Both the position numbers and the translations under genes were made by a program. 64,000 nt of DNA from a candidate division WOR-3 bacterium. GTDB taxonomy: Bacteria > Hydrothermota > Hydrothermia > LBFQ01. The stretch lies in the NCBI GenBank assembly GCA_039802605.1, contig JBDRWW010000002.1, positions 1 to 64,000 of the forward strand, read 5' to 3'. Of the stretch, positions 6,138 to 56,659 are shown piece by piece (position 1 is the first letter of the stretch; each line of letters begins with the position of its first letter). Below the pieces are notes generated by a model. It did not search any database. It was not told the origin of the DNA and saw nothing but the letters and a program-made list of their open reading frames with translations.

Positions 6138-6726
6138 TTCTCCTCAAATAATTCACAACATACCTGGCCAAAACATCAACCTCAACATTTATTAAATCTC
6201 CAACCTTCCTAAAAGGAAAAGCCGTGATTTTAAGGGTTTGCGGTATAATCCTAATGGATATTACATTACCCCGAACCCCGTTTACCGTTAGGCTCGTTCC
6301 GTCCAATGCTATTGAACCCTTTTCGGCAACATAAACCATAAGGTTTTCCGGAATTTCAATGTGCAAATTTAAACCGTCATCTCCGTAATCGTCTATTTTT
6401 ACAACTTTTCCGACGCCATCAACATGCCCCAAAACAAAGTGCCCGTCTATCCTATCACCCACTTTTAATGACCTCTCGTAGTTGCAAACATAACCTAAAT
6501 TGATGGTAGATCCAAACTTCGTCCTCCTAAGGGTTTCATCCGATAGAAAAAACAAAGCCATATTGCCCTTATATTCCTCAACCGTTAAGCAAACCCCGTC
6601 TATGGATATAGACTGACCTGTATAGAACCCCTCTAAGTTTTCAAACTCAAACCAAACCCTTTTACCCTTATCGTAATCCTCAAAATTTACTACCTTACAC
6701 CTTCCCTCAACTATACCGGCAAACAT
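6130..6726 (-). CDS. ribE: Riboflavin synthase alpha chain
   Basis: MFAGIVE, GQSISIDGVCLTV, GHFVLGHVDG, KGSIALDGTSLTV, NVEVD. Confidence 0.96.
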   Translation of the reverse strand: MFAGIVEGRCKVVNFEDYDKGKRVWFEFENLEGFYTGQSISIDGVCLTVEEYKGNMALFFLSDETLRRTKFGSTINLGYVCNYERSLKVGDRIDGHFVLGHVDGVGKVVKIDDYGDDGLNLHIEIPENLMVYVAEKGSIALDGTSLTVNGVRGNVISIRIIPQTLKITAFPFRKVGDLINVEVDVLARYVVNYLRRNG

Positions 6727-7178
6727 TATTTAAGGATAAACCTGAGGCCTATTCCGAAAGTTAAACCGGCTCTAACATCCCCCTCCGTTGTAAATCCCAC
6801 AGCGGGGGGAATCTCTATAAACAGATCAAGGGGAACTTCCGTAAATATAAACTCCAGACCGAGAGGGACGAGTATTCCAAAAATGGCTTTGTCTCCGTAC
6901 TTTCCCTGATCTATACCAGCAAAGGCTCCAACACCGAGATAGCCGTTTATAGGTGTTTCCCTTGTTAATAGGGCGTGGAAGAGTAAGGAGCCGCTCACGG
7001 ATAGATCCGCAGGGCCAACAAATCCACCACCACCGACATGAACCTGCAATGCCGAGTTTTGTCCTATACCCCAGAACTTCAAGGAAAGCCCCGTTGGGTC
7101 CCCTATAACTATCCCTATACTTATCCCCGAACTCGGGGTTGTGGTTAATGCGGAAGATGCCAACAAAAGGCTCAGCAT
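6726..7178 (-). CDS. Small outer-membrane beta-barrel protein (DUF3996-like)
   Basis: GIVIGDPTGLSLK, PLGLEF...PLDLFIE, C-terminal GIGLRF amphipathic strand. Confidence 0.7.
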   Translation of the reverse strand: MLSLLLASSALTTTPSSGISIGIVIGDPTGLSLKFWGIGQNSALQVHVGGGGFVGPADLSVSGSLLFHALLTRETPINGYLGVGAFAGIDQGKYGDKAIFGILVPLGLEFIFTEVPLDLFIEIPPAVGFTTEGDVRAGLTFGIGLRFILK

Positions 7179-7225
7179 AATCGGATATTATAAGACCGTT
7201 TTAAACCATTTTATAATTCCCAACC

Positions 7226-8575: not shown

Positions 8576-9318
8576 TACTAAAACCCTTGGAAAGAATAGG
8601 GGATTTTGCCCTGTTTTTCATAAACACGGTTTTGTCCGTTAAGGAAATACATAAAACCTTCGGGGAAATCCTTAGACAGATAGCGGTTATTGGATACGAT
8701 TCCTTGGTAATAGTTGGTGGAAGTTCAACATTTGTGGGTTTGGTTTCCGCAGTTTTAATCTCCTTTCAAATAAAGGATTTTGTGCCCGCAAATGTTATCG
8801 GAATGGGTATATGGAAGGGTGTCATTACGGAGTTGGCCCCGGTTTTAACCGCATTGGTGGTTGCGGGGAGGGTAGGAGGGGGTTTGGCTTCACAGATAGG
8901 TACGATGAGAATAACGGAACAGATAGACGCCTTGGAGGTTATGGGAATAAATCCTTATAGGTTTATAGTCCTTCCGAGGATAATGGGGGGGATAATTTCT
9001 ATTCCCCTTTTAACCGCAATAGCCACATTTATCTCTATATTTGCCGCCTTAATGTTTGCAACATATGTTTATAGCATGCCTTACAACGACCTGGTTAGCG
9101 GTATGAGGATGAGTTATAACAATCAAGACCTGATAGTTGGAGGAGTAAAAGCCATAACATTCGCCACTATAATCTCTTTTATCAGTTGTTATGAGGGTTT
9201 TAGGACGGAAGGGGGTGCAATAGGCGTGGGGCTTTCGGCTATGAGGGCGGTGGTGTATTCCGCCGTTTTAATATTGGCGGCGGACTTTATAATATCCCTT
9301 TACTTCTACGGCAGATGA
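8566..9318 (+). CDS. mlaE: MlaE-family ABC transporter permease
   Basis: ELAPVLTALVVAGRVG, GTMRITEQIDALEVMG, GGAIGVG. Confidence 0.93.
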   Translation: MDIILKPLERIGDFALFFINTVLSVKEIHKTFGEILRQIAVIGYDSLVIVGGSSTFVGLVSAVLISFQIKDFVPANVIGMGIWKGVITELAPVLTALVVAGRVGGGLASQIGTMRITEQIDALEVMGINPYRFIVLPRIMGGIISIPLLTAIATFISIFAALMFATYVYSMPYNDLVSGMRMSYNNQDLIVGGVKAITFATIISFISCYEGFRTEGGAIGVGLSAMRAVVYSAVLILAADFIISLYFYGR

Positions 9319-10601
9319 TAACCGTTTTGTTATCATTACCCAAACTCGTGGTTTTGGTTGTTGTTGATCAGTTTAGATACGATTATCTTTCGGATTTTAA
9401 GGGCAATATCCTTCTTAAAGATGGGTTTATATATACCGATTGCCATCACATGCATATACCTACATATACGGCCGTTGGACACGCTACAATATCAACCGGG
9501 GTTGAACCGAGGATACACGGGATAATTTCAAACTATTGGTATAACCGCAAAACGGGTAAGTATTCCTCACCAGTGGATGACCCGGATTTTGAGAAATCCC
9601 CGAGAAACCTTTCCTTCCCAACCATTGGGGATCATTTAAAGGTAAAATATCCAAAATCAAAGGTTGTTAGCATTTCCTTAAAGGATAGGGCGGCAATATT
9701 ATTGGGTGGATATTTGGCGGATGTCGTCCTTTGGATGGATAAGAACTTTAAATTCACAACTACTGGCTATTACAAAAAACCCCCTTGGTTGGAAGAATAC
9801 AACAAAGGTTTATCAATTAAAAGCGATGAAGACGGGATATTTAAAGGGAATTACGCCCTCTTTGAACTGTTTAAGGAGGCGGTTTTAAGGGAGGAACTGG
9901 GTAAAGACGAATTCCCGGACATAATATTCATAAGTTTTTCATCCTTAGACCTTGCGGGGCATAAATTTGGTCCAAACAGTAATGAGGTAAAGAGGTTGGT
10001 CTTGCAGATGGATACCATAATATCCTCAACGATTGATTTCCTCAACGAAAACATCGGTAAAGGGGAATATGTCTTGATATTTACATCGGATCACGGGGTT
10101 GCGCCCATACCCCAAAGGTTGGGGGGAAGGATAAACAACAAAGAATTGAAAGAGGAATTAAACAAAAAGCTGAAAGAGGAGTTTAAGGTATATCCGGCGA
10201 TTTTGGACATATCCTCCCCTTGGGTTTTCATAGATTATTCAAAGGTTAAAGGGGATAAACTGAAAAGGGTTAAATTGAGGGTAAAGGAGTTGCTTATGGC
10301 TAAGGATTTCGTTTTAAGGGCTTATACATCGGATGAAATAAGGGATATGCAACCAAGGGATTTTATAGACAGTTTGGTAATAAACGGTTTTTATGAAGGT
10401 GTGGGGATAGATGTTGTATATGTTCCAAAACCATACTGGATATTTTCATCCTATGATGATGGAACGAATCACGGTTCCCCATACTTTTACGATACGCATG
10501 TACCCCTGATATTCTACGGTTTGGAAAGGGGAAAGGACCAAAACAGGTGTAGCATAACAATCATTTCAAAGAGGTTAAGGGAAATATTGGAATTACCTTA
10601 G
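9315..10601 (+). CDS. Alkaline phosphatase superfamily (PafA/NPP-like, Thr nucleophile)
   Basis: PKLVVLVVVDQFRYDY, PTYTAVGHATISTG, KDRAAIL, DLAGH, TSDHG, HGSPYFYDTHVP. Confidence 0.92.
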   Translation: MITVLLSLPKLVVLVVVDQFRYDYLSDFKGNILLKDGFIYTDCHHMHIPTYTAVGHATISTGVEPRIHGIISNYWYNRKTGKYSSPVDDPDFEKSPRNLSFPTIGDHLKVKYPKSKVVSISLKDRAAILLGGYLADVVLWMDKNFKFTTTGYYKKPPWLEEYNKGLSIKSDEDGIFKGNYALFELFKEAVLREELGKDEFPDIIFISFSSLDLAGHKFGPNSNEVKRLVLQMDTIISSTIDFLNENIGKGEYVLIFTSDHGVAPIPQRLGGRINNKELKEELNKKLKEEFKVYPAILDISSPWVFIDYSKVKGDKLKRVKLRVKELLMAKDFVLRAYTSDEIRDMQPRDFIDSLVINGFYEGVGIDVVYVPKPYWIFSSYDDGTNHGSPYFYDTHVPLIFYGLERGKDQNRCSITIISKRLREILELP

Positions 10602-10823
10602 AATTAGGGACAGAACTGTGGTAAAGAATATAATTAATGCGAAAATAACCCAAAACCCGAGTTTCCCGCGCAATGTAAAAACGACAAGGATATATACGGT
10701 TAAAGGGGCAAATGCCCATATATGCAATCCCAAACGATAACCAAAGAGTGAAAGCATTATCCCAACCAAAACCATTAGCAATGGCAACCTACTCATCAAA
10801 AAAGAGTAAAATATAGTTTGCAA
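10593..10823 (-). CDS. Small hypothetical membrane protein (start possibly ATG at 10795)
   Basis: Almost entirely hydrophobic; fills the gap and is coupled to the cytochrome c stop. Confidence 0.55.
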   Translation of the reverse strand: MQTIFYSFLMSRLPLLMVLVGIMLSLFGYRLGLHIWAFAPLTVYILVVFTLRGKLGFWVIFALIIFFTTVLSLILR

Positions 10824-11325
10824 CGGCCTCTTTATCCTCGTCGGTTAGTATATCCTTGAAAGAATACATGTTTGTTCCCGGTATCCCTTTGTTTAAGATT
10901 TTAATCGTGGTGCCGGGTAATGGGTTAAACTTCGTAAAGTCCGGAGGTGGTGGAACGGTATTCCCCAAACCCTTTCCATCCCCATTTATTCCATGACAAG
11001 GGGAGCACACATTTTCATAAACATACCTGCCCCTCATTATTAAAGAAGTATCAACTTTCACACCTTTTGCCGAAATATTTTCTATATACTTGGCCAATTC
11101 ATAGATCTCCTTTTCGCTTAAATCGTTAAAAGGGGTCATCGCAGTCCCCTCAACCCCTTCTTTTAAGATTTTAACCACATATTCGGCCTTTATCCTGTAA
11201 TCTTTGAACAATGGGGCTGGTGGAATTAAGTTGTTGTTATCCCTATGGCAGGTTATACACCTCTGATTATACAAAACCTCCCCCAAACTAACCCTTTGAC
11301 CCAAACCGAAAAGGACTATAAACAT
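10789..11325 (-). CDS. Di-heme class I c-type cytochrome
   Basis: Two CxxCH motifs (CITCH, CSPCH), each followed by a G-T-x-M distal ligand segment (GTAMTPF, GTNMYSF). Confidence 0.92.
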   Translation of the reverse strand: MFIVLFGLGQRVSLGEVLYNQRCITCHRDNNNLIPPAPLFKDYRIKAEYVVKILKEGVEGTAMTPFNDLSEKEIYELAKYIENISAKGVKVDTSLIMRGRYVYENVCSPCHGINGDGKGLGNTVPPPPDFTKFNPLPGTTIKILNKGIPGTNMYSFKDILTDEDKEAVANYILLFFDE

Positions 11326-13352: not shown

Positions 13353-13357
13353 GCCCC

Positions 13358-13598: not shown

Positions 13599-15011
13599 AT
13601 GGCAAGGATACTTTTGATTTTTTGCCTTGTGCCTACGGTTGCCCTTGGCCAATCTTTGCCGCCTTTTAGGGCCGCAAACTCCACATGGATGATGCATCAA
13701 GGGGCGACATATCTAACAGGTCTCCAACTCTTAAAAGGCGCCGTAGTGGGTCCCAATGTGAAATGTACGGATGACTCCTTGAATAGGGTAGCGATTGGGG
13801 ATCCATTGGTTGCCGATATAAACGGCGATGGACTGAACGAAATAGTTATATTAACTCCGGGACAAATTTATGCTTTTAGGGGAACGGACTGCTCAATTAT
13901 ATGGTCTCGTTCTATTCTGGGAAGTCATACCCCAGCAATAGGGGATTTAAACCCGTCAATACCCGGACTTGAAATAGTTGTAGTTTATATTACGTTCATG
14001 TCCTAAGCGGAACGGATGGTAGTGAAATATGGTATCAGAGTTACTTAAACGTTTACTCTCCCCCAAGCGTAGCGGATGTGGATGGGGATGGATTTGCGGA
14101 GATTTTTATAAGTACCGATTATACCTTAGACGCCATATACGCGCTAAGGGGCACGGATGGAAGCGTTATATGGTCTCGTCCGATAGGCGGAACTCGCGGG
14201 AACATAGCCATAGGTGATATAAACAACGATGGTGATTATGAGCTGGTGACATTCGCAAATGCCGGTGTTCTGGTTCTTAGAGCCACGGACGGTTCAACCC
14301 TTTGGCACTATTACACTGGGTCGTTTGGAGAAGTATCCCTCGGCGATTTGGATAACGATGGATATTTGGAAATTGTGGCAAATGTAAACCGATATGTACC
14401 CGATTCGGTTTTCCCGCCAACCGACTCCATGAAGGTTTATGTTTTAAGGAATAATGGAGTATTATAAACTCGCCAACCATAGGCGATATAAACGGTGATG
14501 GTATATTGGATGTGGTTGTTGGAGCTTATGACCATCATGAAATGGCTGGCTATGTGTATGGCCTACGGGGTGATAACGGTTATCCCATATTAAACGAGAT
14601 CATCGGTATATCACCTAATGATAGTATGCCTTCAATAAAACTGGGGGATATTGAATTTATTCTTCGGATTATTTTAAGGGTTTATCAATAGCGGATGTAG
14701 ATAACGATGGGTGTTCGGAAATAATAGCAACAACAAGATTTATGAGCCCCCTTACTTTTTATGTTTTTGATTCCCCAACACCCGTTTCAAGCTGTGGCAC
14801 TTTGGGATATGGCGAAGCCTTTGGGAATAAATCACCGCATATAAAATTTTCCGTTATGGCGGTTAAGGGAGGGGTTATAGTGGAAACGGATAAAGCCTAT
14901 GAGATTGGGGTATATAACGCATCGGGCAAACTCATAAAGGTTATTAAGGTAAGCGGAAAGGGATTTATAAAATGGCGGTTGTCAAACCTTAAAACATCAT
15001 ATCCTTTATAA
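13599..15011 (+). pseudogene. FG-GAP-repeat secreted protein with T9SS-like CTD, split by at least 3 frame breaks
   Basis: Signal peptide, then repeated DxNGDG/DxDNDG motifs spread over ORFs 13599-14006, 14078-14467, 14506-14691 and 14742-15011. Repeats continue in shifted frames across the junctions (e.g. HVLSGTDGSEIW...SVADVDGDG; SPTIGDINGDG; SIADVDNDG). VYNASGKLIK CTD remnant. Confidence 0.8.
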
Positions 15012-15012
15012 T

Positions 15013-16059
15013 ATGCATCCTATGCTAATGTTATCCCTTTACCTAATTTCCGCCGATGGTGATACATTGGAGAGGTCAAGGGAAGAAATAGCAAAGTTTG
15101 CCGCATCGCAGTGTATATTGGGGTGCGCCGCATACCCAGTAGCAACAGCGATATTTGTTGGAGCGTATACCGAAAATTGGGATTACGCAGGATGTACGGG
15201 TTTGATGACACCCCTGGCATGCCTAACCGCAAGTGGAGTTTATGCCCTCTCATCCCCAATTAAAAAACCTATGGCCGCCGCATCCTTTACGGGTGCAATA
15301 GACGGCGCTTTATGGTCTTTACTAATTTATGGGAATATTGTCTTTTGGGGAAATTATTATGACGACGGTAAAAAACTCTTTTCAACGCTTATACTTTTTG
15401 GTTTATCGGGTGGAAACCTAGCGGGACTATATTCGGGATACCTTGGGGGTTCGGAAGGTGCATACATTTTGAAAACATATTCGGCCTTTTATGTACCCTA
15501 TACATATTTCCAAGCAAAGAGGTTAATCTTGGGAAACTTTGCGGGGAATTATTCGGAAGACGAATTTAAGGTGGATCTCTCAATTGCAATGGCCTTATCC
15601 ATAGGTGGGGGATTGGGAACATACTATTTAACAAAGGACAATTATGAAATTACCGGTGGAGACGCCATTTTTATAGGGGCAAATGTTATAAAGGGTGCGG
15701 TAATTCTTGAAACGCCCATAAAACTCGTTTATATAAACACAAATCCTATTTCGCAGGATTTTAACCCGATGTTATTCAGCGGCGCTTTTGTTTACTACGA
15801 TGACCCAATATACGACAGGCTTTCAGCGGCAGCGTATTTAAGCGGTATGGCCTTGGGGGCATACATATCCTATAAAATCGCAAAGAAGAAGGACCTAAAC
15901 ATATTGGAAGGCCTTGTTTATTCCACCGTTCCAATTTTCGCATATTACGCCGGTATGGCCCCTTGGATAGTTTTGAGAGAAGACTATTATAGGATTATGC
16001 CCTTAGTTCAGGTTTCCTTTGATGTTGGGGCATCTTACCTGCTATATAAACTGTTTTGA
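15013..16059 (+). CDS. Hypothetical multi-pass/Gly-rich membrane protein (start probably ATG 15022)
   Basis: 348-aa ORF with many hydrophobic Gly/Ala-rich helices; no family recognised. Confidence 0.7.
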   Translation: MHPMLMLSLYLISADGDTLERSREEIAKFAASQCILGCAAYPVATAIFVGAYTENWDYAGCTGLMTPLACLTASGVYALSSPIKKPMAAASFTGAIDGALWSLLIYGNIVFWGNYYDDGKKLFSTLILFGLSGGNLAGLYSGYLGGSEGAYILKTYSAFYVPYTYFQAKRLILGNFAGNYSEDEFKVDLSIAMALSIGGGLGTYYLTKDNYEITGGDAIFIGANVIKGAVILETPIKLVYINTNPISQDFNPMLFSGAFVYYDDPIYDRLSAAAYLSGMALGAYISYKIAKKKDLNILEGLVYSTVPIFAYYAGMAPWIVLREDYYRIMPLVQVSFDVGASYLLYKLF

Positions 16060-17499
16060 GAATATTAAAAAGGCAACCCTACCCCTTGAAGGATAGCCCT
16101 CAATAAAGTAGTTCCTACGGTTTAAAAGGTTATCAATTCCAAAGGCTAAACTATACCCTTTAATGCCAAAGTTCAAGGATATGTCTAGGTTTAGTATGTA
16201 ATCAACAAAACGGGTGTTTGCCGGGTTTGTGAATCTCGGGTCAATGTACAAGAGGGAGAGGGAAAAAATTTTATAATTGAGGAGAACGGAATATGTATTC
16301 CTCGGCCTGTAAACCATCCTATTGCCGTTATCGTAATACGCGTAAAGTCTATCGTATTTAAACCTTAAAAATCCAAATCTACCGTAGAGGGAAATCCCCC
16401 ATATGTTCCCCGCCGAGGAGTTTTCCGGCCTCCAAATTCCCCCCACATTCCTCCACTCTATTATATCCCAAACCCTTCTGAAAAACCCGGATATTTGCAA
16501 ACCCTTAAATTCAAACTCCGAACCTATTGTAAATGTTTTTTCGTTTTTTAAGTTGGGATTACCCTCGGCACCCGAACCCCTCCAATACAACTCGTCAAAG
16601 GATGGAATGCGGTTTGAAAGGGAAAGGTTAAATGCCGAATGTTTAAATGGGATATTCAAGAAACTTCCAAAACCCACCCTTCTCCCATCATACCAAACAT
16701 TTCCCGAAATATAGCCGTTAAAGACATAAAGGTTTTTTCCGAGGTATATTAGTGGGCGGATTTTTTCCCCAATGTTTGAGCTCCTTATACCTTCCGCATA
16801 TGTTAAGATTTTATATCCCAAAACATCCCATTTATAACCCGCCCGCAAATTCGTATGGTAAGAGTATATGAATTTATCCCTCCATTCCCTTCCGAGGATT
16901 AAAATGTTGAAATCCCCATAACCCATAGCAACCCTTATATCCGTTTGTACTCCGGAAAGTTGGGGGAAGCCCTCCATCCCCGAAGTCCTCTTCCTTGAAA
17001 CCCTTAAATCCCCAAAACCCCTATCGTATAAAAACACCCCTTCGGCATAAAAAAGGCTATCCCTACCACCCGTTAAATTCCCCAAATCAAAACCCCCATA
17101 TTCGCCCTTATACCCAAAGGAAAATCCCCCAAAACCGTTTAAAAAGCCGTAATATTCCCTTCCCTGGGTATAAGAAAAGTTCAGGTTCCCGTAAATTGAA
17201 TAAGGGGAAAATCCACCCTCATAAACGGATAGATTGCCGAACAAGAAGGGGGAAATATCGGTTAAGTCCGCATATGAGTTTTGGGGTTGATTTATCAAAA
17301 TACCGTTTAAAAAAACCGCATTCCCCTTTGGATGCCCACCTTTTAAAGAGATTCCGGAAAGGTCGGCATAAGACCCATAAGTAAATCCATAGGAAAAGGG
17401 TAAGGTGGAGGCCATAACCCATAGGGGCTTATTGTATTCGAGCGTTATTGTATCCCCTAAGGGGGCCTCCACCAAAATTTCCGGAAGGAAGAAACTCAC
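16042..17499 (-). CDS. Compact TonB-dependent receptor, probably BtuB-like
   Basis: TonB-box-like LPEILVEA, plug motif SLKGG...VFLNGILIN, GNPNLKNE, IDNLLN..Y.IEGYPSRGR C-terminus; lies in a cobalamin-riboswitch operon. Confidence 0.85.
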   Translation of the reverse strand: MSFFLPEILVEAPLGDTITLEYNKPLWVMASTLPFSYGFTYGSYADLSGISLKGGHPKGNAVFLNGILINQPQNSYADLTDISPFLFGNLSVYEGGFSPYSIYGNLNFSYTQGREYYGFLNGFGGFSFGYKGEYGGFDLGNLTGGRDSLFYAEGVFLYDRGFGDLRVSRKRTSGMEGFPQLSGVQTDIRVAMGYGDFNILILGREWRDKFIYSYHTNLRAGYKWDVLGYKILTYAEGIRSSNIGEKIRPLIYLGKNLYVFNGYISGNVWYDGRRVGFGSFLNIPFKHSAFNLSLSNRIPSFDELYWRGSGAEGNPNLKNEKTFTIGSEFEFKGLQISGFFRRVWDIIEWRNVGGIWRPENSSAGNIWGISLYGRFGFLRFKYDRLYAYYDNGNRMVYRPRNTYSVLLNYKIFSLSLLYIDPRFTNPANTRFVDYILNLDISLNFGIKGYSLAFGIDNLLNRRNYFIEGYPSRGRVAFLIFSKQFI

Positions 17500-18617
17500 C
17501 TCTTTATAACCTTCTTAACTTTCCCGTTATCCCCGACAAAGAAATAAACCCCGGTTCCTATGGGTTTAACAACCCTCCTACCCGTTATATCATAAACCGC
17601 TTTTATGTTTTCGTAGGATTTATGGGCGTATTCCTTCGCCGAGAGCGTATTCGGCGATAGGGTCATTGATATGGGTCCAACATCAACAGTAGCGGTATGT
17701 TCTACGGAATTCGTGTTTCTGTTGAAAACTATTATATTCCCGTTTGATATGTAATCACCCGCGGCGATTATAAAAATCCTCTCGTTATAAATCTCCCCTT
17801 CGGAGAAACCGTAATAAGAACCCAAGGGTAGGGGTATAAAGGCCCTGCTTGAAGGTGTGAAATAACCCGCCCAGGAGTATCCCAAAGCCAAAAGTGTATC
17901 GGTATTAACATACTTTAAAAAGCCTATGTTTTGAGGTGTTGGTGTGCTATCAAGGATTGCCAGAGGATTTGTTGAGATTAAATAAACCTTTCGCGTTGTG
18001 GCATCAAACCAATCCCCACCTGAAACAAAGGCGGTATCCGTTCCGTAGAATTCCATATAAAGGAGGTTTATCCCAAACTTCAAGGAATCAACTATATTTC
18101 CTAGGGTATCAATCTTGTATAGGGTTGATGTATCCGTTTTAAAGCTATCCCTGTTATAACCCGTTGATATCGCGTAAAAGTATCCACCGTTAAACCCCAC
18201 ATATTGCGGACTCCTCCAAACCCTTAGGCCCCAAACCATACCCTTTGTGGTTAAATCGTATAGGACAAGGCTATCGGAAGCCCATAGTGAGATGAGGATT
18301 TTGTTGTTGTTGATAACAGCCGAATAGGGGTTTGAGGAGGGGTTTAAGGTTATACTATCAACCAAGAATGGGTAGTTGTCGTCTTGGAGGATGTATATCT
18401 TGCCGTTTCCGGAACTTACCGTGTAAAGGTATCCCGAAGAGTACAAAACCTTGTTTAGGGTGGAGCCATGCGGCTCTATACCGTTTCGCAGGGTGAAGGG
18501 TGGGGATGCGTTCATTATTGAGATTGAACCCGGCGAAGACCAAATGCTATGAACCACAACAACCCTTTGCGCAAAAAGTGGCAAAGACAAAAGCATTAAA
18601 GAAAATAACCTTTTCAT
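17496..18617 (-). CDS. YncE/BtuG-like beta-propeller with T9SS-like C-terminal domain
   Basis: True start MKRLFSLMLLSLPLFAQ at 18617 (the ORF-track extension runs through the riboswitch); propeller repeats (SNPYS, RSPQY, VGPISM); CTD VYDITGRRV...GVYFFV...KKVIK. Confidence 0.8.
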   Translation of the reverse strand: MKRLFSLMLLSLPLFAQRVVVVHSIWSSPGSISIMNASPPFTLRNGIEPHGSTLNKVLYSSGYLYTVSSGNGKIYILQDDNYPFLVDSITLNPSSNPYSAVINNNKILISLWASDSLVLYDLTTKGMVWGLRVWRSPQYVGFNGGYFYAISTGYNRDSFKTDTSTLYKIDTLGNIVDSLKFGINLLYMEFYGTDTAFVSGGDWFDATTRKVYLISTNPLAILDSTPTPQNIGFLKYVNTDTLLALGYSWAGYFTPSSRAFIPLPLGSYYGFSEGEIYNERIFIIAAGDYISNGNIIVFNRNTNSVEHTATVDVGPISMTLSPNTLSAKEYAHKSYENIKAVYDITGRRVVKPIGTGVYFFVGDNGKVKKVIKR

Positions 18618-21689: not shown

Positions 21690-23807
21690 ATGTTAATGCT
21701 TTTAATATCCGCGCCGCCGCCGGATGAGATTAAGAGGTTGGAGGAGATAAAAGATTACTTTGAGGAAGCCGAGAGGGTTTCCGGGGTTTCAAAGGATGTT
21801 TTAATGGCCGTTTCATACGCCCTAACGAAATATTATCACCACATACCCAAGGAGGGCGAAATACCGCAATACGGGATAATGGGGATTTTCAATTTGAGCG
21901 AGGCGGAAAGGTTTTCCGGAATAAATAGGGAAAAGATAATCAATAATCCAAGGGATAACATCATAGCGGGTGCAAAACTTATAAGGCACTATATGGAAGT
22001 TTGCGGTGGGGATTTGCAATGCGCTTTGAGGAATTACGGGCCAAAGGGCGCGGAGAACGCATTCGCGATGGATGTTTTGAAGCTCCTGAAAAACGGTTTA
22101 GAATACCCCGTATTATCAATAAAACCACATACCGAAATAAACATAAAGGATACCGAAAAAAGCGGTTTTAAACCCTTGGCTTGCCCCCCTGGGCCCGAAT
22201 ACCCATTAGTTGACAGGTGGGATCAGGCGGACCCTTCAAACTTTACGGCGAGTTCAAGGCCGAGCAGTTATCCAATACATAAAATAATCGTCCATACAAC
22301 GGAAGGGTCGTATTACGGTGCCATATCCTGGTTTAAAAACCCCTCTTCAAATGTTAGCGCGCATTATGTTTTGAGGTCTTCGGATGGGGAGGCCACACAA
22401 ATGGTTTGCCATAAGGATATAGCATGGCACGCGGGAAATTGGTATTACAATACGAGGTCAATAGGTATAGAGCACGAGGGATATGTATCGCAAAACGGTT
22501 GGTACACGGATACGGTTTTAAAGAAATCCGCATATATAAGCAGAATGTCCATAACAACCTTTGGGTTTTCACTAAATCACGATACGATAAACGGGATAAT
22601 GGGGCACAATGAGGTACCCGGAGCAACCCATACAGACCCCGGAGCGTACTGGGACTGGCTTTACTATATGGCATTGGTTGAAGGTTTAAGGGTTTCGGAT
22701 ACGCTGGTTGATAACTTAACAACGGGTTTTAGGAGGGGTGGCCCTTATGAGTATTGGTGGTTTGATTCCGGCAACGGATACGGAACGGTTTATTCCCTTG
22801 GGAATTATAGGCACACTTGGTACACATATACAACAACCGGCTCCGTTGTGAATTGGGCCAGATGGACACCAAACCTACCCAGAACGGGTTTGTACGAGGT
22901 AAAGGTTTATATACCTTCCGGGTACAACGCCTATGTTAGGTATAGGGTTTATCATCAGGGGAGTATAACGGATGTTTGGATAAATCAGTCCCTATACTCA
23001 AATCAATGGGTTAGCCTCGGAACATACACCTTTGATGCGGGTTATTCCATAAACAACGCTTTAACCCTTGGGGATACATCAGACGCTTCCGGAAGGAAAA
23101 TAGCATTTGACGCCGCCGTTTGGATATACAGGGGGCCTTCGGGTTGCGGGGATGTGGTTGTGGATGATGGGGATCCGAATTGGTATCCCTTTGGAAGTTG
23201 GTATCTGAGTTCTTATTCGGGTTATAACGGGGATTATAGGTATGCTAATGTTGGAGGAACGCCTGACTCCGCTTTATGGGTTTCTTCCCTTCCATGTTCC
23301 GGGGGATGGAAGGTTTATGCATGGGTTAGGAAGGGAACGAACAGGACCACACAAGCCCATTACAGAATAAGAACAATACACGGCGATACGAGTTTATACC
23401 TTAATCAATACGGTTCCTCCTCGGATACCGGTTGGTTTTACTTGGGAAGCGTTTGCGCGGATACATTCCTGGTTAAACTTTACGACAATGCCCCGGATGG
23501 TAGCGTTGTCATAGCAGACGGTATAATGTTCAGGAGGGATACGAGCATTTCGTGTTATACGGATGTATCCGAATCCGAGGTTGAAGAGAATATAGATATA
23601 AGGTTTGAGAGGGGTTATATAAATGTCTTGGTTCCTACGAGGACGGATTTAACCCTTAAAGTCTTCTCTGCCGATGGTAGGGCGTTGGTTAAGGAAGAAT
23701 ACAAAGGGGTAAGGGGTTGGGTTAAATATCCCTTCAAGCATAGGGGTGTTTTCTTCGTTGTGGTTGAATGGAAGTATGGTTATAAAGTTAAGAAGTTCAT
23801 CCCTTAG
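21690..23807 (+). CDS. Secreted N-acetylmuramoyl-L-alanine amidase (Amidase_2) with two golvesin/Xly-like carbohydrate-binding modules and T9SS-like CTD
   Basis: IIVHTTEG, SAHY, AWHAGN, SIGIEHEG, GHNEVPGATHTDPG; two VDN/VDD...W..LG.Y...AD modules; VFSADGR...GVFFV...KKFI CTD. Confidence 0.88.
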   Translation: MLMLLISAPPPDEIKRLEEIKDYFEEAERVSGVSKDVLMAVSYALTKYYHHIPKEGEIPQYGIMGIFNLSEAERFSGINREKIINNPRDNIIAGAKLIRHYMEVCGGDLQCALRNYGPKGAENAFAMDVLKLLKNGLEYPVLSIKPHTEINIKDTEKSGFKPLACPPGPEYPLVDRWDQADPSNFTASSRPSSYPIHKIIVHTTEGSYYGAISWFKNPSSNVSAHYVLRSSDGEATQMVCHKDIAWHAGNWYYNTRSIGIEHEGYVSQNGWYTDTVLKKSAYISRMSITTFGFSLNHDTINGIMGHNEVPGATHTDPGAYWDWLYYMALVEGLRVSDTLVDNLTTGFRRGGPYEYWWFDSGNGYGTVYSLGNYRHTWYTYTTTGSVVNWARWTPNLPRTGLYEVKVYIPSGYNAYVRYRVYHQGSITDVWINQSLYSNQWVSLGTYTFDAGYSINNALTLGDTSDASGRKIAFDAAVWIYRGPSGCGDVVVDDGDPNWYPFGSWYLSSYSGYNGDYRYANVGGTPDSALWVSSLPCSGGWKVYAWVRKGTNRTTQAHYRIRTIHGDTSLYLNQYGSSSDTGWFYLGSVCADTFLVKLYDNAPDGSVVIADGIMFRRDTSISCYTDVSESEVEENIDIRFERGYINVLVPTRTDLTLKVFSADGRALVKEEYKGVRGWVKYPFKHRGVFFVVVEWKYGYKVKKFIP

Positions 23808-33662: not shown

Positions 33663-34418
33663 AACAGTATGCCCATTATAAGGCGGAAGTTAAAACTCTC
33701 GTGTTCATCAAGTACCCTTGTTATCTGCGGATAAAGACCTGCCGTTATCCAGAACTTGGTATGGGAGTAGTGTATTACCGGACCTATGAATAGGGCAAAG
33801 TGCTCCGCGTTTCCGGAAGGGAAAACCTTATCCGGCCACTCGCTATGAGACCAACCCTCAAAGCCTACTGAAAAACTTCTATCACCTATGGGGAATTTAT
33901 ACACCAATCCACCGGTTATTGAAAACTCGGCTTCCCTTTCAATTTCATCGTACCCCTCGCGCTCAAACTCCGTTTCACCGATAATATTAGAAGCCAACTG
34001 AAAGTTCCCTATATTCTTGGAGAGTAAGAGCTTGACTTCTCCCTTTACCTCGTGGCCGTAATAGTATAACTCTCCATAAAACCCAAATGGGGGTAACCTG
34101 TAAATCCAGGCCCAAGCCAATCCTTTAAAGGATGTTTTATTAACATTTTGACCGTCTGGATAGGCGATAAACTCCTTTCCAAAATCGAGGTATATATCCG
34201 TACTCAGGTTTGGCGTGAAGGCATGTTCCAATTCAAGCCTTAGGTCCTGCGCGGAATAAAACTGACCTTCCCTACCTTGTTTTATCGTTAACCAGGTTTC
34301 AAACTCCGTGAAACCGCTCGGCAGGAGATCCGTATCGTATGTGTATAGGAATAACCTCTCATGCCCCCAAAGGCCAAAGGAGTGCCGGTAAAACGCTTAA
34401 ATAAATTATTCTTTTCAT
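33659..34418 (-). pseudogene. Outer-membrane beta-barrel protein (DUF6662-like), frameshifted by a 7-bp tandem duplication in the signal peptide
   Basis: ATG 34418 gives MKRIIYLSVLPALLWPLGA*. Removing one copy of ccaaagg (34367-34380) restores MKRIIYLSVLPALLWGHERLFLYTYDTDLLPSGFTEFETW...LELEHAFTPNL, continuous with ORF 33659-34231. Confidence 0.8.
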
Positions 34419-48211: not shown

Positions 48212-49771
48212 ATGGTAGGTATGCTATTCATAATTGCCGGCGGAGGACCCGATGGATATGGGTATTACTGGTTTGATAACGGTGATGGGGTGCCTTTTGA
48301 GTGGTATGACCTGCAAAATCCACCCTCATGGGCGTATGTCCCTATAATGGATTCCGCGGATGGTACATTGGCAAATGCCATGTGGATACCAACCTCTGCA
48401 CAAACGAGGATAACGGGAGGTGACGAGCAGTATAACAACTCACAAACCCTACCCTTTAATATTACATATTTTGGAAATACCATACCCGCGGGTTCTAATT
48501 TTACAATCTCAACAAACGGTTGGCTTGCATTCGCTTCATACACTTCACCATACCTTTCAAACACATCGTTTCCAAATCCCGCCTTACCAAACAACATAAT
48601 AGCACCTTTTTGGGATGACCTCGCGAGTAGGGTATGGGTGGGTGTAATAAATGATATAAGGACATATTGGCCACTCTGGCCCGATTCAACGGCCGCTTTG
48701 GTTATAACATGGGATAGTGCGGGTTATTGGTTATCCTCCGACTCAAAGGTTGCGGAATTTCAGGTTGTAATACTTGATACCACGGATCCGAACGGGAACA
48801 ACATAATTGCGTTTATATACAAATCCCCATTGGTTGGAACGGCTACGAGAAGCGCATCCATAGGGTTTGAAAATTCAACGGGCACAATGGGGAATGCTTA
48901 CACGGGAGTTTTAAGCGTTGGTACAACACCTTCCGCAACAAACTTTAACCCCGGTGTGGTCGTATTCAACTCGGCTTATATACCGGGTGACTCCGATGTT
49001 GTGTTTTTGGGTAGCGGTGATGAGTACTTATTCACATACAATTTGCCCTTTGATGTCAAGTTTTATGGCACAACATACGCCGCCGGTTCTCCGGTAAAGA
49101 TATCAACAAATGGTTTCATATCCTTTGATGCGAGTATAACATCACCTTATTTGAGTAATTCTTCCATACCTTCAACATTGTCGCCCAACGCTTTATTGGC
49201 AATATGGTGGGATGATAATGTTGTTGATGGGGCGATAAAGACAAAGGTTATAGGAACGGCGCCGAATAGGAAATGGGTTGTTAGGTGGGAGAGGGTTAGG
49301 AGGTATGGGGGTTCAGGTGGCACGGCGGATTTTGAGGTTATAGTTTATGAGGATACAACATCAACGGGCGACAACAAAATAGTATTCTCCTACAACGATA
49401 CAAACTTTGGGTCTTCAACACCAAGTGCCACCATAGGTATAGAGAATCAAACGGGTTCCATTGGATTACCCTATACGGGTAGCAGGATAACCGGGACACA
49501 ACCGAACATATCCGCAATACTTGATAGCACATCTATATTATACCAAACCGAAATCTTCACATCCGTTTCGGAAAGGGCTAATATGTTTAGCGTGTTCATA
49601 ACAAAAGAGGGTGTGAAAGTTATCGGAAAGGCCAATGTGGATGTTTACAACGCCATTGGTAAAAAGGTTTTATCTTCAACTGTTGAGAATTCCACTTTAA
49701 AACTTGAAGACCTTCCAAGGGGTATATACTTCATACGCGTAGGAGACAAAACCTATAAGTTTATCAGGTAA
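48212..49771 (+). CDS. Secreted protein with two tandem NIDO-like domains and T9SS-like CTD
   Basis: GGPDGYGY start; duplicated LPF...F/YG...ISTNG...SPYLSN...PN...A.(F/W)WDD...A(S/T)IG.EN.TG; VYNAIGKKV...LPRGIYFIR...KF. Confidence 0.82.
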   Translation: MVGMLFIIAGGGPDGYGYYWFDNGDGVPFEWYDLQNPPSWAYVPIMDSADGTLANAMWIPTSAQTRITGGDEQYNNSQTLPFNITYFGNTIPAGSNFTISTNGWLAFASYTSPYLSNTSFPNPALPNNIIAPFWDDLASRVWVGVINDIRTYWPLWPDSTAALVITWDSAGYWLSSDSKVAEFQVVILDTTDPNGNNIIAFIYKSPLVGTATRSASIGFENSTGTMGNAYTGVLSVGTTPSATNFNPGVVVFNSAYIPGDSDVVFLGSGDEYLFTYNLPFDVKFYGTTYAAGSPVKISTNGFISFDASITSPYLSNSSIPSTLSPNALLAIWWDDNVVDGAIKTKVIGTAPNRKWVVRWERVRRYGGSGGTADFEVIVYEDTTSTGDNKIVFSYNDTNFGSSTPSATIGIENQTGSIGLPYTGSRITGTQPNISAILDSTSILYQTEIFTSVSERANMFSVFITKEGVKVIGKANVDVYNAIGKKVLSSTVENSTLKLEDLPRGIYFIRVGDKTYKFIR

Positions 49772-49778
49772 TACAAAC

Positions 49779-49802: not shown

Positions 49803-49819
49803 TTATAATATCATCTCGC

Positions 49820-49892
49820 GGGGCCGTAGCTCAATTGGCAGAGCAGCGGACTCATAATCCGTGGGTTGGGGGTTCGAGTCCCTCCGGCCCCA
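49820..49892 (+). tRNA. tRNA with CAT anticodon (Ile2/lysidine or elongator Met; not initiator)
   Basis: GGGGCCG-TAGCTCAATTGGCAGAGC-AGCGGA-CTCATAA-TCCGT...GGTTCGAGTCC-CGGCCCC-A. G1-C72 is paired and the three consecutive anticodon-stem G-C pairs of fMet tRNA are absent; CCA not encoded. Confidence 0.93.
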
Positions 49893-52589: not shown

Positions 52590-52615
52590 ATAAAGTATTG
52601 TAAAGGGGAAAATTT

Positions 52616-55600
52616 TCATTTTACCAATACCTTCCAAACCCTTGAACCCTCACCACTCGTAATTTTAACCATATAGACGCCCTTAGGATATGTCAGATCA
52701 ACCTCAACGCCGTTTAACCCTTCAAACTCCCCAACCATCCTACCCGCTACGGAATAAACCTTAACCCTTATAAGCCCCTTTCCGAAAACCCTTAAAGTTC
52801 TCCTGCTTATCTCAACATCGGTTTTCCTTTGCGTATTTCCCGCAACACCGCTTGTTGTTATATCGTTATCCATCCTTATAGGCGAGTTTGTGGCCCATGC
52901 GTTAAACCTAAACATATCCCATATGGGGTTGCTCCTTGAAACTTCCCAAGAGAATAGCATGTTCCCATAAATGGGTGCGAATAGGTATGATTTGCCACCG
53001 TAGGTTATCATGGTTGGGGCGGAGACGACGGAATAGTTTCTGTACTTATTGTTATCGGAAAGGTTTATGGGGAAGCCCTTATAGTTTTTACCTCCAAGGG
53101 AATAAGCGTTCAAATATCCGTGGGAGTTTGATATTAGTATTTCCTGTTTGCCGTCGTTGTCTATATCAACCACAATCGGATGCCTGATAGTCGGATACAA
53201 TTCCCTTATCGTATCAAGCATAACCAGCTGATCACCAACCCACTTATACACACCCAACTGTATATTGTTATAGAAAGCCAATTCATACTTTCCATCCCCA
53301 TCAAAATCAACGGGTATGCAATAGGAGTTTGGATAATACGCGGAAGAATCCCTAAGGAGTATATCGCCGTTTTTGGATATTATATAATTTCTATGTCCGC
53401 ATACCACTATCTCCGCATCCCCATCAAAGTTCATATCCCATACGAATAGGTGCCTCGTATAATGCATCCCTATGGGTGCCTTTAGAACTACGGGAAAACC
53501 GGGTTTTTCGTTAAGGTTTTTATCCAACATATAAACCAGTGTATCCGTTTTGAATACTATCTCCCAATTTCCATCCCCATCAAAGTCGTATGTAGCGGGG
53601 AAGGAAAGCATATACCAGGGCTCGGATATAATAAACCTGCGATAAGAATATACACTTCCATCCGTAGTATCCAAAACATACATCCCACCACCTCCGGAAA
53701 TCGCAACAACATAAGCTTTATCCATATCAAGCATAGAGGCCATTAAGAATTTCGGAGTGGTATCGCTTTCTCCACCGTTGAGTTTTGTATTCCACTTAAC
53801 CGTGCCGTCGTATTTTATCATTCTAACATAACCGTCTTCCGTCCCTACGACTATATAATGGCCTATTACTATCGGGGTTGTTGTGATCCTTGTGGGAAGG
53901 TTTATAGTGTTTATATTGTTTCCGTAAAAATCAAGGATGTAGAGTTTGTTAAATGCAGATGCAATTACTATTTCCGGCTCCGATGTTGATGGTATCAGTT
54001 GAGACACTATCGGCGATGAGTTTTCCGGATATTCGCTTCCGGAATTCTTTATGAGTTCAATATCCAGTGCAAACCTCATTCTTGGGTTGGCCCTGAGGGT
54101 TATAGTATCCGAAGGAGGCCCTTCAATTCCTCCAACTACGGGTGTTATGAAAAATGCGTGGTCTTCAAAGTCGTTTAATGGTATTTCCACTCTACCACCC
54201 TTAACCGTGGCTATGCTTAATGGAAAGTTATCCATATAAACCTTCCACCTTACAGTTGTATCCCCTCCAACCCATGCCAAGGATATACCGTTTGTTGTGG
54301 GTTCTCCGAATATGCTGTCCGCCCTAAGATTAACCGTATCTATAACTATTTTCACATCACCCTGAAATACCTTCCCGTTGTATATGTAAAATCTCAAACT
54401 ATCCCCCAAATTTGCCTTAACCTTGAACATCCATCTATAAAGGGATGAAGAGTTTGGCATCAAAGGTGGGAATTCTTTAACGTTATGCCTTTCCTCCAAG
54501 CCTTTGGCATATGTATTTATAACCCTTGTAATCTTTATCGTATCACTAACCGTTTCACCCAAGTTTATGAAGTCAAACATTAACAGAATACTATCCCCCA
54601 CCGGGTACCATTTGGCGGACCTGAAAACAATCCTTGAAACCCTCGGCTTTATTGTCGCTTTATAAACCCCATCGCCGTAATGTATTGTGAAGTTTGTTGG
54701 GGAATCTTCCGTAAATTCAACCAGATATTCAACTTTTGTGGTGGAGTTTGCTTTGATGGTTATGGTTCCGGGTTGGAGTAGTATCCTCGCTTTATCCGAT
54801 GAAAGTATAGGCCTTATAATCACATCTTTGTTCCCTATATTTGAAAATACTGCTATATACGCTATCAACCCTTACATAGTTTCCCGAAAATACGCTTGTG
54901 AAGCTGTCTATCTTTAAAGGTTGTCCCTCCACATTCACACCCCAATAAACTTTATTACCCCTTGGGACATTGTATGTAAGCATAACCTCGCCGTTTTCAT
55001 CGGTATAACCTTTGCTTACAACCCTTCCGCCATCCGTTATAACAACCTTTGCCCCAACAATCGGGGATTTATCGGGCTTATAAACCCAGAATTTGACCTT
55101 TCCGTCCATTACGGTTGTTTTAACCTTGAAGGGTGAAGATTTATCCGTAAATACCCTAACAAGGGGATCCCCCACCAAATGATAGGAAAATGTTAAGTAT
55201 CTATAAAGCGGGGAGTAATAGGCCACGGAACTCAAATAAATTTTCATAACATTGAAGAGATAACCCACCGTTGGGGGTTCCTTTGAGGTATTCAGACTGT
55301 CGTAAAATACCCAATACAGGGAATAAACGGACATGGTAAAATCCGCCTTAGAAGAACCTATAGAGGCCGCGGCTTTACCCCTCATTACAAATTCCTTACC
55401 TACGGAACTTGAAAAGGGCTCGTTTCCAAAGCAGGCCGCAAGACCCACAACCGAAAGGTTTGTGTTTTCTATGTTATCCACATCGCCGTATTCAAAAACA
55501 TCGTTATAATATAGATTCCTATTCACCAAAACCCTATGGTTTGCATGCATTAAGAAAAACGCAACGGCTGGGTTTGTTGAACTTATACTGTCCGTTATAA

Positions 55601-56659
55601 CCCTTGAATCCTTCTCGCATACGAACTTAATGTTGCTCCTCGGAAATGAAGTTAGCCTTTGTGAGAGGTCGTAAATTGATATACAACCATCAGCGCTGTC
55701 TTCGGGTACTGTTGGAGAGCCGAAGAGGTTTGCCGAGAAGAAATTAAAGGAATAGTCGGAATTTGATACATATGTTTGGTGTTTTATAACCGTTTGGACA
55801 TATACTTCAACCTCTTGGGGTGTTGTTGCTGGAAACCTACCAACCACAATATCCGGTACAAAATCCACAGAATCCATATCCCCATACCAATAGTTTCCGT
55901 CCGTATTCCAATCCCCATCAAGGGCGGCGTAATAAAAGTCCGTTAAAACGGTATTTCCGTAGGCTATTTCATATGGCCCACTGAAAAGTGGCACATAAGA
56001 CCTCAAAGGGGGTATTTTGTAAGCATCCGCACCTATTAAAACCGCCGAAATCCCCCAATTACTATAAGCAAACTTTAAGAAGTTGCGAATCTTTTCCTGT
56101 ATCCCGTTGCCCTCAAAATTTTGATTTATCCATTCAACGGTAAATATTTTCCCATTAAAACCTTCAAGGGAATGCAGGTTTATTAAGGGGACATTATACC
56201 AAGGCCCGCAAAAACCCTTCCCCATATTTTCGGGTTTGAGTATTTTGGTTTATCGTATCTGTACGATGAATTAACCGTTATTACATCAAACTCAACCTCC
56301 TCTACGAGATAGGTTTTCCCGTTTATCACCTTTATAGCGGGTACCAAAACGAAAGCCAAATTATGCCCCCTGAAAAACCCTTGATTTCCGAGAAAGGCTG
56401 AGTTTTGGGGATAAGTCTCGGGTAGATTTCCCATTATGCTTATCGTATCTATAACCTTGGCAAAGCGTATTGGATAGTTTATATGCCTTAACCTCTCGCG
56501 CTTAATCCTAATTTCAGACACCCTTTCGTTATCCCTAAGGTTTATGACCATAACCTTTACGGGAATTTCGGGGTATCCGGGCCCTTTTGCCCATAGGGGG
56601 AGTTTATTTATCTCCCCCTCCTCTACGGCAGCCGTGAATGTTGTGATTATCCACATCAT
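52616..56659 (-). pseudogene. Gingipain-like C25 cysteine peptidase with propeptide, FG-GAP repeats and T9SS-like CTD, split into three ORFs
   Basis: 56183-56659 propeptide (PGYPEIP); 54792-56225 C25 core (IRNFLK, VLIGAD, TDFYYAALDG, VGRFP, His MHAN, Cys AACF, YHLVGDP); 52616-54868 DFDGDG repeats, GFP, VYSVAGR...GVYMV. The ORFs overlap out of frame. Confidence 0.8.

Follow-up and report, generated by a model that had tools for sequence, protein, structure and literature searches.

Classical signal peptides of the general secretory (Sec) pathway, those cut by signal peptidase I (SPase I), are 18-30 aa long and are built of n-, h- and c-regions. Neutral n-region mutants of E. coli and the prlA and prlG suppressors show that Sec can work without a basic n-region and that altered SecY or SecE can accept badly truncated signals. 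Ffh, FtsY and 4.5S RNA, which make up the signal recognition particle (SRP) system, are regarded as universal and serve as marker genes, and leaderless mRNAs with a -10 box just before the AUG are known from Deinococcus-Thermus and Actinobacteria. The present work concerns the N-termini of exported proteins in a 64,000-nt stretch of DNA, hereafter the window, from the genome of a candidate division WOR-3 bacterium. Many of these proteins begin with hydrophobic leaders of 8-11 aa that have no basic n-region, and the genome belongs to a class in which no SRP genes could be detected.

Two further bodies of work come close to what we describe. The Q-rule places Gln at position +1 of most SPase I substrates and is reported to hold in Bacteroidetes, not in the whole Fibrobacteres-Chlorobi-Bacteroidetes (FCB) group (PMC5837995, PMC10653852). 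Other studies report that Streptococcus mutans is viable without Ffh and FtsY (PMC8546722) and that other routes or slower translation compensate in E. coli SRP suppressors (PMC7844537; bioRxiv 10.1101/2021.01.06.425660, also PMC8299109). Our full-text search, with subscription journals mostly outside its reach, returned no description of a lineage with short or uncharged signal peptides and none of a lineage with natural SRP loss; that two clades of this phylum have lost Ffh, FtsY and 4.5S RNA is, to our knowledge, undescribed. From the sequence comparisons below we consider it probable that the short N-termini are working Sec-type export signals that lack the basic n-region and about half of the h-region, in an SRP-less lineage.

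Short uncharged leaders in the genome and its relatives

The window is positions 1-64000 of contig C2 of genome G000 (1.65 Mb in 23 contigs, 41% G+C, 90% estimated completeness). Open reading frames (ORFs) were called crudely, taking the first ATG, GTG or TTG after a stop and then proceeding greedily by length, which gave 1679 ORFs; 1543 were retained after requiring at least 100 aa and excluding ORFs at contig edges. As earlier automatic leader classes were too noisy, stricter rules were used instead: residues 2-7 had to be apolar or small, at least five of residues 2-8 had to be I, L, V, F, M or W, and the first D, E, K, R, Q, N or H had to stand at or before residue 14. The first two rules were passed by 118 ORFs and all three by 108 of the 1543, the latter having, as the rules dictate, Met plus 6-12 apolar residues and no Lys or Arg. 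Start codons in this strict set were ATG in 86 cases, TTG in 14 and GTG in 8.

The composition of the leaders is constrained. In 75 of the 118, positions 8-10 hold the first polar residue, and the apolar run after Met1 is 6-8 residues long and ends at residue 7-9 in 75 as well, a range at the lower edge for an h-region (about 7-15). That first polar residue is Gln in 33 leaders, Asp in 27, Glu in 19, Asn in 16, Arg in 11, Lys in 9 and His in 3 (n = 118). Gln is thus about five-fold enriched over its background of 5.5%, without being a majority, and Lys and Arg together (20/118 versus a background share of 38.5%) are depleted. Trp occupies residue 3 in 30 of the 118 (MIW.., MMW.., MVW..), as compared with a proteome Trp content of 1.3%; W3 is found in 59 of the 1543 ORFs. 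The short leaders contain no Arg that could form the twin-arginine motif of the Tat pathway, and Cys, the residue of the lipobox, is outside the seven commonest residues at leader positions 2-13 in the 118-leader set. A few uncharged short lipobox leaders do exist, such as MILAVYWFSGC at G000:C7:74883(-).

Short leaders are concentrated on families whose members have to leave the cytoplasm. BamA, TolC, c-type cytochromes with their CxxCH motifs and type IX secretion system (T9SS) cargo cannot work in the cytoplasm. Members checked against Pfam include a TolC-family OEP protein with its domain from residue 13, an Omp85/BamA-like protein with POTRA from residue 10, a second OEP protein, two Redoxin-fold proteins, an M16 peptidase and an M28 peptidase. 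A test that does not depend on the N-terminus used the 19 proteins that matched PF18962, the T9SS sorting domain at the C-terminus. Under a loose leader rule, 9 of these 19 had a short leader versus 160 of the 1543 ORFs (Fisher p = 4e-5), one of the 19 having been mis-picked as an overlapping ORF and scored as a miss; under the strict rule, the counts were 6/19 versus 108/1543 (p = 0.0013). Read by eye, 12 of the 19 begin with an uncharged apolar stub, 4 have a classical or long signal and 3 are unclear.

Classical signals are present in the same genome. A crude rule found 48 ORFs with a lipobox and a basic n-region (MKR n-regions, 12-15-residue h-regions), and about 20 classical SPase I-type signals, e.g., MKRLFLVLSIIPAVVFAQ and MKKVLLVFGFASPLFAQ, were counted by eye among 75 listed rows that include cytoplasmic proteins. 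Unlike the lipoproteins, most other proteins lack the MKR n-region and the 12-15-residue h-region. The classical signals also end in ...FAQ or ...YAQ.

Comparison with relatives was made on a class sample of 31 genomes in ten families. The TolC family matched in 31/31, and 30 loci from 30 genomes, G000 included, were read. In the window's family, all 12 loci have an 8-9-aa leader before a conserved L-[TS]-E-[DE] (e.g., MMWVIAVLE, MIWFIATIE, MIFILSLE, MILLLVSLD, MTLVLLSFT, MILTLSMV, MMLLAVAII, MIWLFSLT and MLLLVCMP), with a run of Gly codons, a GGAGG-type Shine-Dalgarno (SD) sequence, directly upstream. Leaders of the sister family run to 10-11 aa at all 7 loci (e.g., MLNIILNLIE and MINIIFNLLE), and those at the other 11 loci to 11-19 aa. 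Lys or Arg occurs within the first eight residues in only 3 of the 30 (MRRFIVSIGIFVGWSLA, MNRFFLTPFLLVGWLAA and MLKLIFLISQ).

BamA, which matched in 58 of 61 phylum genomes with 30 loci read, behaves similarly. The leader is MITLLVSLN in G000 and 9-15 aa long in the rest of the class, where three leaders have Lys at position 3. Other classes are mixed and show classical signals (MHKRLFILLF..., MRICGILWVL...), a lipoprotein form, and uncharged leaders of normal length such as MISLLHLLTLFLIGTGTA and the GTG-started MVFLTVIVILGQVAPG. Nine of the 11 dihaem cytochrome c loci of the family have uncharged leaders of 9-11 aa and the other two have TTG-started lipoprotein-type signals, MNSYHQKGKILLILALWGC, with the short leader aligning to the C-terminal half of the long one. 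Since orthologs of the cytochrome carry either signal type, short and classical signals are interchangeable on one protein. The same contrast was seen in samples of 120-200 kb from five other genomes, where, for example, an ortholog starting with MFLAITSY before ILIPMDETQTDHLR in G000 starts with MKKIFIILIFISLKIYPY before IFIPMDEEQSDHLR in another class.

We also read 35 PafA-like homologs among at least 120, one of which lacked a match to the anchor pattern. The anchor Asp of VDQFRYDY is residue 18-20 in five proteins of this lineage and residue 31-47 in 25 others, all with basic n-regions. The short leaders of TolC, BamA and cytochrome c orthologs are conserved in character, not in sequence. 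Leader length is graded: the window's family has 8-9 aa and the sister family 10-11 aa, the remaining families of the class have 11-19 aa with mostly uncharged leaders, and several other classes of the phylum have classical signals. The suggestion of a first-pass annotation of the window that this lineage may use a minimal targeting signal gains support from this comparison, as the short leaders sit on orthologs of proteins that need export (TolC, BamA, cytochrome c).

Export machinery and the signal recognition particle

The same annotation had proposed, as another possibility, a modified SecA, SRP or signal peptidase. SecA, SecY, YidC and LepB look ordinary, and this proposal finds its support where it was not expected, in an SRP that is absent, not modified. 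G000 encodes a SecA of 978 aa, a YidC, a SecY at G000:C2:107320-108651 whose best PDB match is 3DL8 (E = 5e-123), and one signal peptidase I (LepB) of 223 aa with one N-terminal membrane span and the SSSM and KR motifs that hold the Ser and Lys.

The Ffh M-domain model PF02978 (SRP_SPB) matched in none of the 31 class genomes, including one that is 100% complete in 3 contigs. In the phylum sample used for the SRP protein models (151 genomes), it matched 80 (E about 1e-31 to 1e-37) and followed families cleanly, with no match in any of the class's ten families or in f10, f16, f20 and f22-f25, and with matches in f11-f15, f17-f19, f21, f26 and f29-f31 and in 10 of the 12 genomes of five further families. 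The SRP54-type GTPase model PF00448 matched 99 of the 151 genomes, usually twice, as Ffh and FtsY (E about 1e-65 to 1e-76). Within the class it gave no match in 27 genomes of nine families and weak matches (E about 1e-6) in 4 of the 5 genomes of f3; the sole match in G000 is RadA. Families f16, f20 and f24 had one match each, at about 1e-40.

Further searches of G000 gave the same picture. With tblastn, six Ffh proteins of the phylum found nothing below E = 0.008, and our own hidden Markov models of four Ffh and four FtsY proteins of the phylum, run on the six-frame translation, reached a best E of 0.0013 (16 bits). The 4.5S RNA model RF00169 matched in 0/31 class genomes and in 4 of 5 Ffh-bearing genomes of the phylum. 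As controls, 14/14 known genomes matched for the proteins and 12/14 for the RNA. By these searches, Ffh, FtsY and 4.5S RNA appear to have been lost from the whole class. According to PF02978 and PF00448, Ffh is also missing from a second clade of the phylum.

In a SecY tree built from 30 genomes, the rows without SRP form two groups, the class with 11 rows (support 100/99) and a group of 9 rows from f10, f16, f20 and f23-f25 (support 97/99). Two changes of SRP state are needed on this tree and 0 of 500 label shuffles did as well, on a single-gene, midpoint-rooted tree in which kin are not independent. The SecY branch of G000 is long, 0.70 versus a median of 0.18. When SecY of the two short-leader families (n = 19) was set against 29 other phylum sequences, four near-invariant positions differed, two of them in RRVPISYAKRTVGLSP (the RRVPISYAKR... 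loop), which we take to be the cytoplasmic TM6-TM7 loop that contacts the ribosome, SecA and FtsY in E. coli. When SRP-less genomes were set against SRP-bearing genomes, one SecY position separated them.

Leader genes of the window, their starts and the assembly

The starts of the ten short-leader examples named in the first-pass annotation were re-read in the window, and all ten lie where it had placed them. As examples of short leaders eight hold, the exceptions being an FMN-binding protein without a hydrophobic leader and a TonB-dependent receptor (TBDT) whose start is odd within its genus. Long ORFs of the window are intact under translation table 11, so that another genetic code was set aside, and Pfam confirmed that first domains begin right behind the leaders, e.g., Phosphodiest and Cytochrome_CBB3 both from residue 12.

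The leftmost example is a small beta-barrel-like putative outer membrane protein (OMP) of 150 aa (6726..7178, - strand) with the leader MLSLLLASSA; its match to DUF3996 is weak (E 4.8e-4, below the Pfam cut-off). A TATAAT hexamer at 7187..7192 (- strand), 8 nt before its ATG, is a likely -10 box of a leaderless or near-leaderless mRNA. The Phosphodiest/PafA-like phosphatase (9315..10601, + strand) has MITVLLSL before a conserved PKLVV...VDQFRYDY. The dihaem c-type cytochrome with its short leader is encoded at 10789..11325 on the - strand; its ATG shares one base with the TAA that ends a 675-aa EF-G-like gene, which is unexpected as an operon partner of a periplasmic cytochrome. An Amidase_2/Golvesin_C surface protein (21690..23807, + strand) starts with MLMLLISA and has TAAAAT at 21676-21681 (+ strand), 8 nt before its ATG. 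The BNR-repeat protein (34617..35996, - strand, BNR_2) starts with MLLLTFY right behind a stop codon, and a NIDO-domain T9SS cargo protein with a Por_Secre_tail (48212..49771, + strand) starts with MVGMLFIIAGG, 9 nt behind a TATAAT at 48197-48202 (+ strand).

Two of the eight are broken by frameshifts. The ApbE-like gene (32077..32710, - strand, leader MSILICLL, from a three-frame reading) has a frameshift near 32590 and is one open frame of 219 aa in the relative G002, a genome 91% identical to G000 that we used for intact-gene comparison. What had been called a C25 propeptide is the N-terminus of a PorU-like Peptidase_C25 gene (52616..56659, - strand, about 1385 aa, with a T9SS tail and the leader MMWIITTFTAAV). 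The gene has frameshifts near 56190 and 54845, and tblastn with the intact 1395-aa paralog encoded on contig C20 matches it in three pieces that are collinear (frames 1, 3, 1); in G002 it is intact with the same leader, MMWIIATFTTAV.

The two exceptions are both on the - strand. The FMN_bind protein (33174..33662) has the N-terminus MMPISQFYIDSL. The TonB-receptor-like barrel (16042..17499, weak Plug match) has a GTG start and almost no leader, with only SFF between the start and a conserved LPEILVEA. Of five orthologs of the same genus, two start at this GTG and the other three lack a canonical start at that place; in the sister genus, clean 8-aa leaders stand before YV.PPVEV in four orthologs (MLQILLSQ, MFHIFLLQ, MLGIFVLQ, MFHLLTLQ). 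At 17496-17499 the GTG overlaps the TGA of the upstream gene, which bears a classical signal.

Normal signal peptides had been placed at 13599, 18617, 34418 and 61673, and all four are present. Those at 13599..14006 (+ strand, MARILLIFCLVPTVALGQ, gene body in a mis-assembled repeat region) and 17496..18617 (- strand, MKRLFSLMLLSLPLFAQ) are classical, and 61673..61720 (+ strand) is a classical lipoprotein signal, MLRWLSAFLILFIGC. The signal at 34418, MKRIIYLSVLPALLW, belongs to a barrel-like protein (33659..34418, - strand) and is separated from its body by a frameshift from a 7-nt direct duplication, CCTTTGG twice, near 34360, where G002 reads straight through. The protein at 17496..18617 has a C-terminus that looks like a T9SS tail by eye; it matched no Pfam family at E <= 0.01 and is outside the 19 PF18962 matches.

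The short N-termini are true starts and not an artefact of annotation or assembly. In-frame stops lie 0-37 codons upstream of the ten starts, with no signal-peptide-like stretch in between: 0 codons for BNR (35996), 2 for C25 (56659), 3 for the OMP (7178) and ApbE (32710), 5 for the TBDT (17499), 7 for cytochrome c (11325), 9 for the FMN-binding protein (33662), 14 for NIDO (48212), 23 for the amidase (21690) and 37 for PafA (9315). The longer open stretches are the tail of a preceding gene or a promoter region and contain nothing signal-like; only 47 nt, for instance, separate 7178 from the divergent gene at 7226. Hidden upstream starts were considered and are ruled out by these stop positions. 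Genome-wide, an in-frame stop lies at most 3 codons upstream in 36 of the 108 strict leaders, at most 5 in 55, at most 8 in 71, at most 12 in 85 and farther away in 23.

Assembly error in place of true short leaders, which had been named as something that would undo the observation, did not materialize, as the starts agree in independent contigs and in G002. Contigs of three DNA runs from other studies were aligned to 5001-25000 as an independent check. One of 29,880 nt spans 6634-25000 with 13 base differences and has no indel at 7178, 9315, 11325, 17499 or 21690; in one DNA run, a +1/-1 pair at 7170/7173 within the OMP leader compensates itself. Relative to the independent contigs, the window is short of 19, 39, 61 and 34 letters at 13992, 14463-14466, 14654/14655 and 14960-14971. 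The assembly apparently collapsed in a repeat-rich gene at 13900-15000, which accounts for the fragmentary ORFs 13599-14006 and 14078-14467. Four frameshifts (about 34360, 32590, 56190 and 54845) break three genes of the - strand, the barrel, ApbE and, twice, the PorU-like C25 gene. In G002, each of these genes is a single open frame with the same N-terminus as in the window, and the frameshifts reflect either errors of the assembly or a recent inactivation. Of the public runs, 18, nearly all labelled hot-springs metagenome, contain at least half of the words sampled from 5001-15000; the runs with this segment number 20, from 11 studies, and 8 of them are possibly the source sample.

The upstream context of the starts points to widespread leaderless or near-leaderless transcription in the window's order. 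A TAnAAT hexamer ends 6, 7, 8, 9 or 10 nt before the first start of 51, 61, 139, 109 and 26 ORFs, respectively, 386 of 1334 in sum, and at every other spacing from 0 to 34 nt in 0-13 ORFs (n = 1334). Counted at 5-11 nt upstream, the hexamer precedes 30% of ORFs in G000 and 32% in a genome of the sister family, and its share is 6-11% in four genomes from elsewhere in the class or phylum. The hexamer also precedes the 'normal' starts at 13599 and 61673, at 13587-13592 and 61660-61665 (+ strand), ending 6-7 nt upstream. Within the strict leader set, 47 starts have TAnAAT 5-11 nt upstream, 25 an SD-like word 4-12 nt upstream, 2 both and 34 neither. Short leaders and leaderless starts are not mechanically tied, because SD-led genes such as TolC also carry short leaders. 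An RNA run (share 0.12) yielded eight short contigs on 5001-25000 and was uninformative on transcript ends or expression.

Weighing the explanations against known systems

A typical leader is Met, then 6-9 apolar residues, often Ile, Leu or Met at position 2 and Trp at 3, followed directly by a polar residue, often Gln, Asp or Glu and rarely Lys or Arg. If the short N-termini are Sec-type signals, as we think probable, the hydrophobic stub could be recognized without SRP, probably by SecA/SecYEG, while its free N-terminus and the Trp may hold the leader at the cytoplasmic interface, replacing the lost lysines. The single LepB would then cut immediately ahead of the first polar residue, in the manner of the Gln rule of Bacteroidota. 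We infer that the short leaders share the Sec route with classical signals because both types are found on orthologs and both end before Gln, and because standard SecA, SecYEG and LepB are present with no SRP competing.

Several observations weigh against this reading. Apolar stretches of about 6-9 residues are at or below the shortest functional h-regions of E. coli. The residue before the first polar one is Ala, Gly or Ser in only 37 of the 118 leaders and Leu, Val, Ile or Phe in 56, and with so few small residues at -1 no canonical AxA site stands out that would fix the position of a cut. In four close PafA-like homologs the leader is missing altogether (anchor Asp at residue 11-12), so some members of the class may simply be cytoplasmic. 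The ORF set is crude, and the leader rules also catch some cytoplasmic proteins, such as a GlmS-like protein with MCGIVG. A two-hexamer sigma-70 scan of 40001-60000 found 43 sites versus 49.5 expected from shuffles; as this does not exceed the shuffles, it is the -10 hexamer by itself that carries the leaderless reading. Finally, SRP loss and leader type are not strictly linked: the SRP-less family f23 keeps classical BamA signals, and the BamA signals of family f12, which has SRP, are uncharged and normal in length. The loss of SRP predates the ultra-short leaders, extends beyond them and does not predict them, and because f23 and f12 break the link, it would be a permissive background at most and not a demonstrated cause.

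A bolder explanation is that the class, made up of free-living hot-spring diderms, dropped SRP and that one order within it rewrote its general export signal into an uncharged N-terminal code of 8-10 residues (M-hydrophobic-W-hydrophobic...), outside the logic of n-region, SRP and SecA, which we regard as conceivable but doubtful. In its more specific form, the code M-[ILMV]-W-[ILV]-[ILV] would be no degenerate Sec signal and would be read by an SRP-replacing factor, an adapted SecA or a ribosome-bound factor, possibly co-translationally on leaderless mRNAs, whether or not the leader is then cleaved. The frequency of Trp at residue 3, the sharp bounds of the leaders at 8-10 residues, the lack of all three SRP components in the class, the long SecY branch and the four differing SecY positions would all fit such a code. 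However, no candidate factor was identified, W3 is a preference (30/118) and not a rule, family f23 keeps classical signals without SRP, and orthologs swap short and classical leaders, which argues for one shared pathway; we hold this form to be unlikely. We find it rather improbable, too, that the leaders are uncleaved, either short hydrophobic tags or part of the mature fold, with a lax, prl-like translocon and export driven mostly by the mature domain. The absence of a clear AxA pattern at -3/-1 and the shrinking of leaders to almost nothing, in the TBDT of the genus and the leaderless PafA-like homologs, speak for it, but the position right after the leader is enriched in Gln, Asp and Glu, classical signals share the ...AQ end, LepB is retained, and nothing lineage-specific was flagged beyond the four SecY positions.

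Two simpler explanations account for little of the evidence. Mis-set starts, frameshifts or assembly errors that truncate normal signal peptides could be invoked because the assembly bears four frameshifts in three genes that G002 lacks, with letters missing at 13.6-15.0 kb, because the classical signal at 34418 is detached from its body by a frameshift, and because three TBDT orthologs have no canonical start. This is very unlikely and largely refuted, given the stops within five codons upstream of 55 of the 108 leaders, the SD or -10 elements at proper distance from the starts, the same short leaders in genomes of the class (30 TolC loci, G000 included) and in independent contigs, and the lack of a signal-like ORF upstream, as in the 47 nt before the OMP. 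That the lineage is relocating or losing these proteins, which would no longer be exported, might be read from its small genome (1.65 Mb) and the several broken genes of the window, but we give it almost no credence: BamA, TolC, cytochromes with intact CxxCH and tail-bearing T9SS cargo have no use in the cytoplasm, and the genes are conserved across the class.

If the Sec-type reading holds, most of the proteins that this lineage exports would probably escape signal-peptide predictors and secretome surveys, and this would skew how the metabolism and ecology of these hot-spring genomes are read. The short leaders would also mark a natural lower bound for the Sec signal, with no basic n-region and about 6-8 apolar residues, and as such bear on substrate recognition by SecA, SecYEG and signal peptidase. 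The SRP-less clades raise the question of how membrane proteins are targeted there, and the graded series from classical to uncharged to ultra-short leaders offers a comparative system for the co-evolution of signal and machinery. Were the leaders instead a new code in an SRP-less class, they would be a natural experiment in re-wired protein targeting, with most of the secretome invisible to standard predictors.

Each of the known systems resembles part of what is seen here. As in the leaderless mRNAs of Deinococcus-Thermus and Actinobacteria, about 30% of start codons have a TAnAAT that ends 6-10 nt upstream, although here this is known from hexamer position only, and the trait is one of the window's order in which SD-led genes carry short leaders too. 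The likeness to the Q-rule of Bacteroidota lies in the enrichment of Gln after short (33/118) and after classical signals and in the presence of T9SS cargo, but the leaders here are far shorter. The plant-type glutaminyl cyclase model PF05096 found no match in G000, a result that is uninformative because it has no match in Bacteroides either.

The E. coli neutral n-region mutants and prl suppressors similarly show export without a basic n-region or with a truncated signal; those are laboratory mutants of lower efficiency, whereas in this lineage most signals are naturally of the short form. Unlike in the prl suppressors, the SecY contrast flagged four positions only and identified no change in the plug or pore. 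The SRP-less strains of S. mutans and E. coli are likewise examples of bacterial life without SRP, but they are engineered, whereas here the loss is natural and extends, in all the genomes searched, over two clades of one phylum; the YidC of G000 has no long basic C-terminal tail.

The closest likeness is to the Sec/SPase I signals themselves. The short leaders sit at the N-terminus, are hydrophobic, vary in sequence while keeping their character among orthologs, and occur on periplasmic, outer-membrane and secreted families in a genome that has SecA, SecY and LepB, and classical and short forms interchange on orthologs. They differ in having no basic n-region, a total length of 8-11 aa that amounts to about one normal h-region, no clear small residues at -1/-3 and a common Trp at residue 3. 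On these grounds, we class the short leaders as a putative variant of Sec signal peptides that lacks the defining basic n-region and has an h-region at its lower limit.

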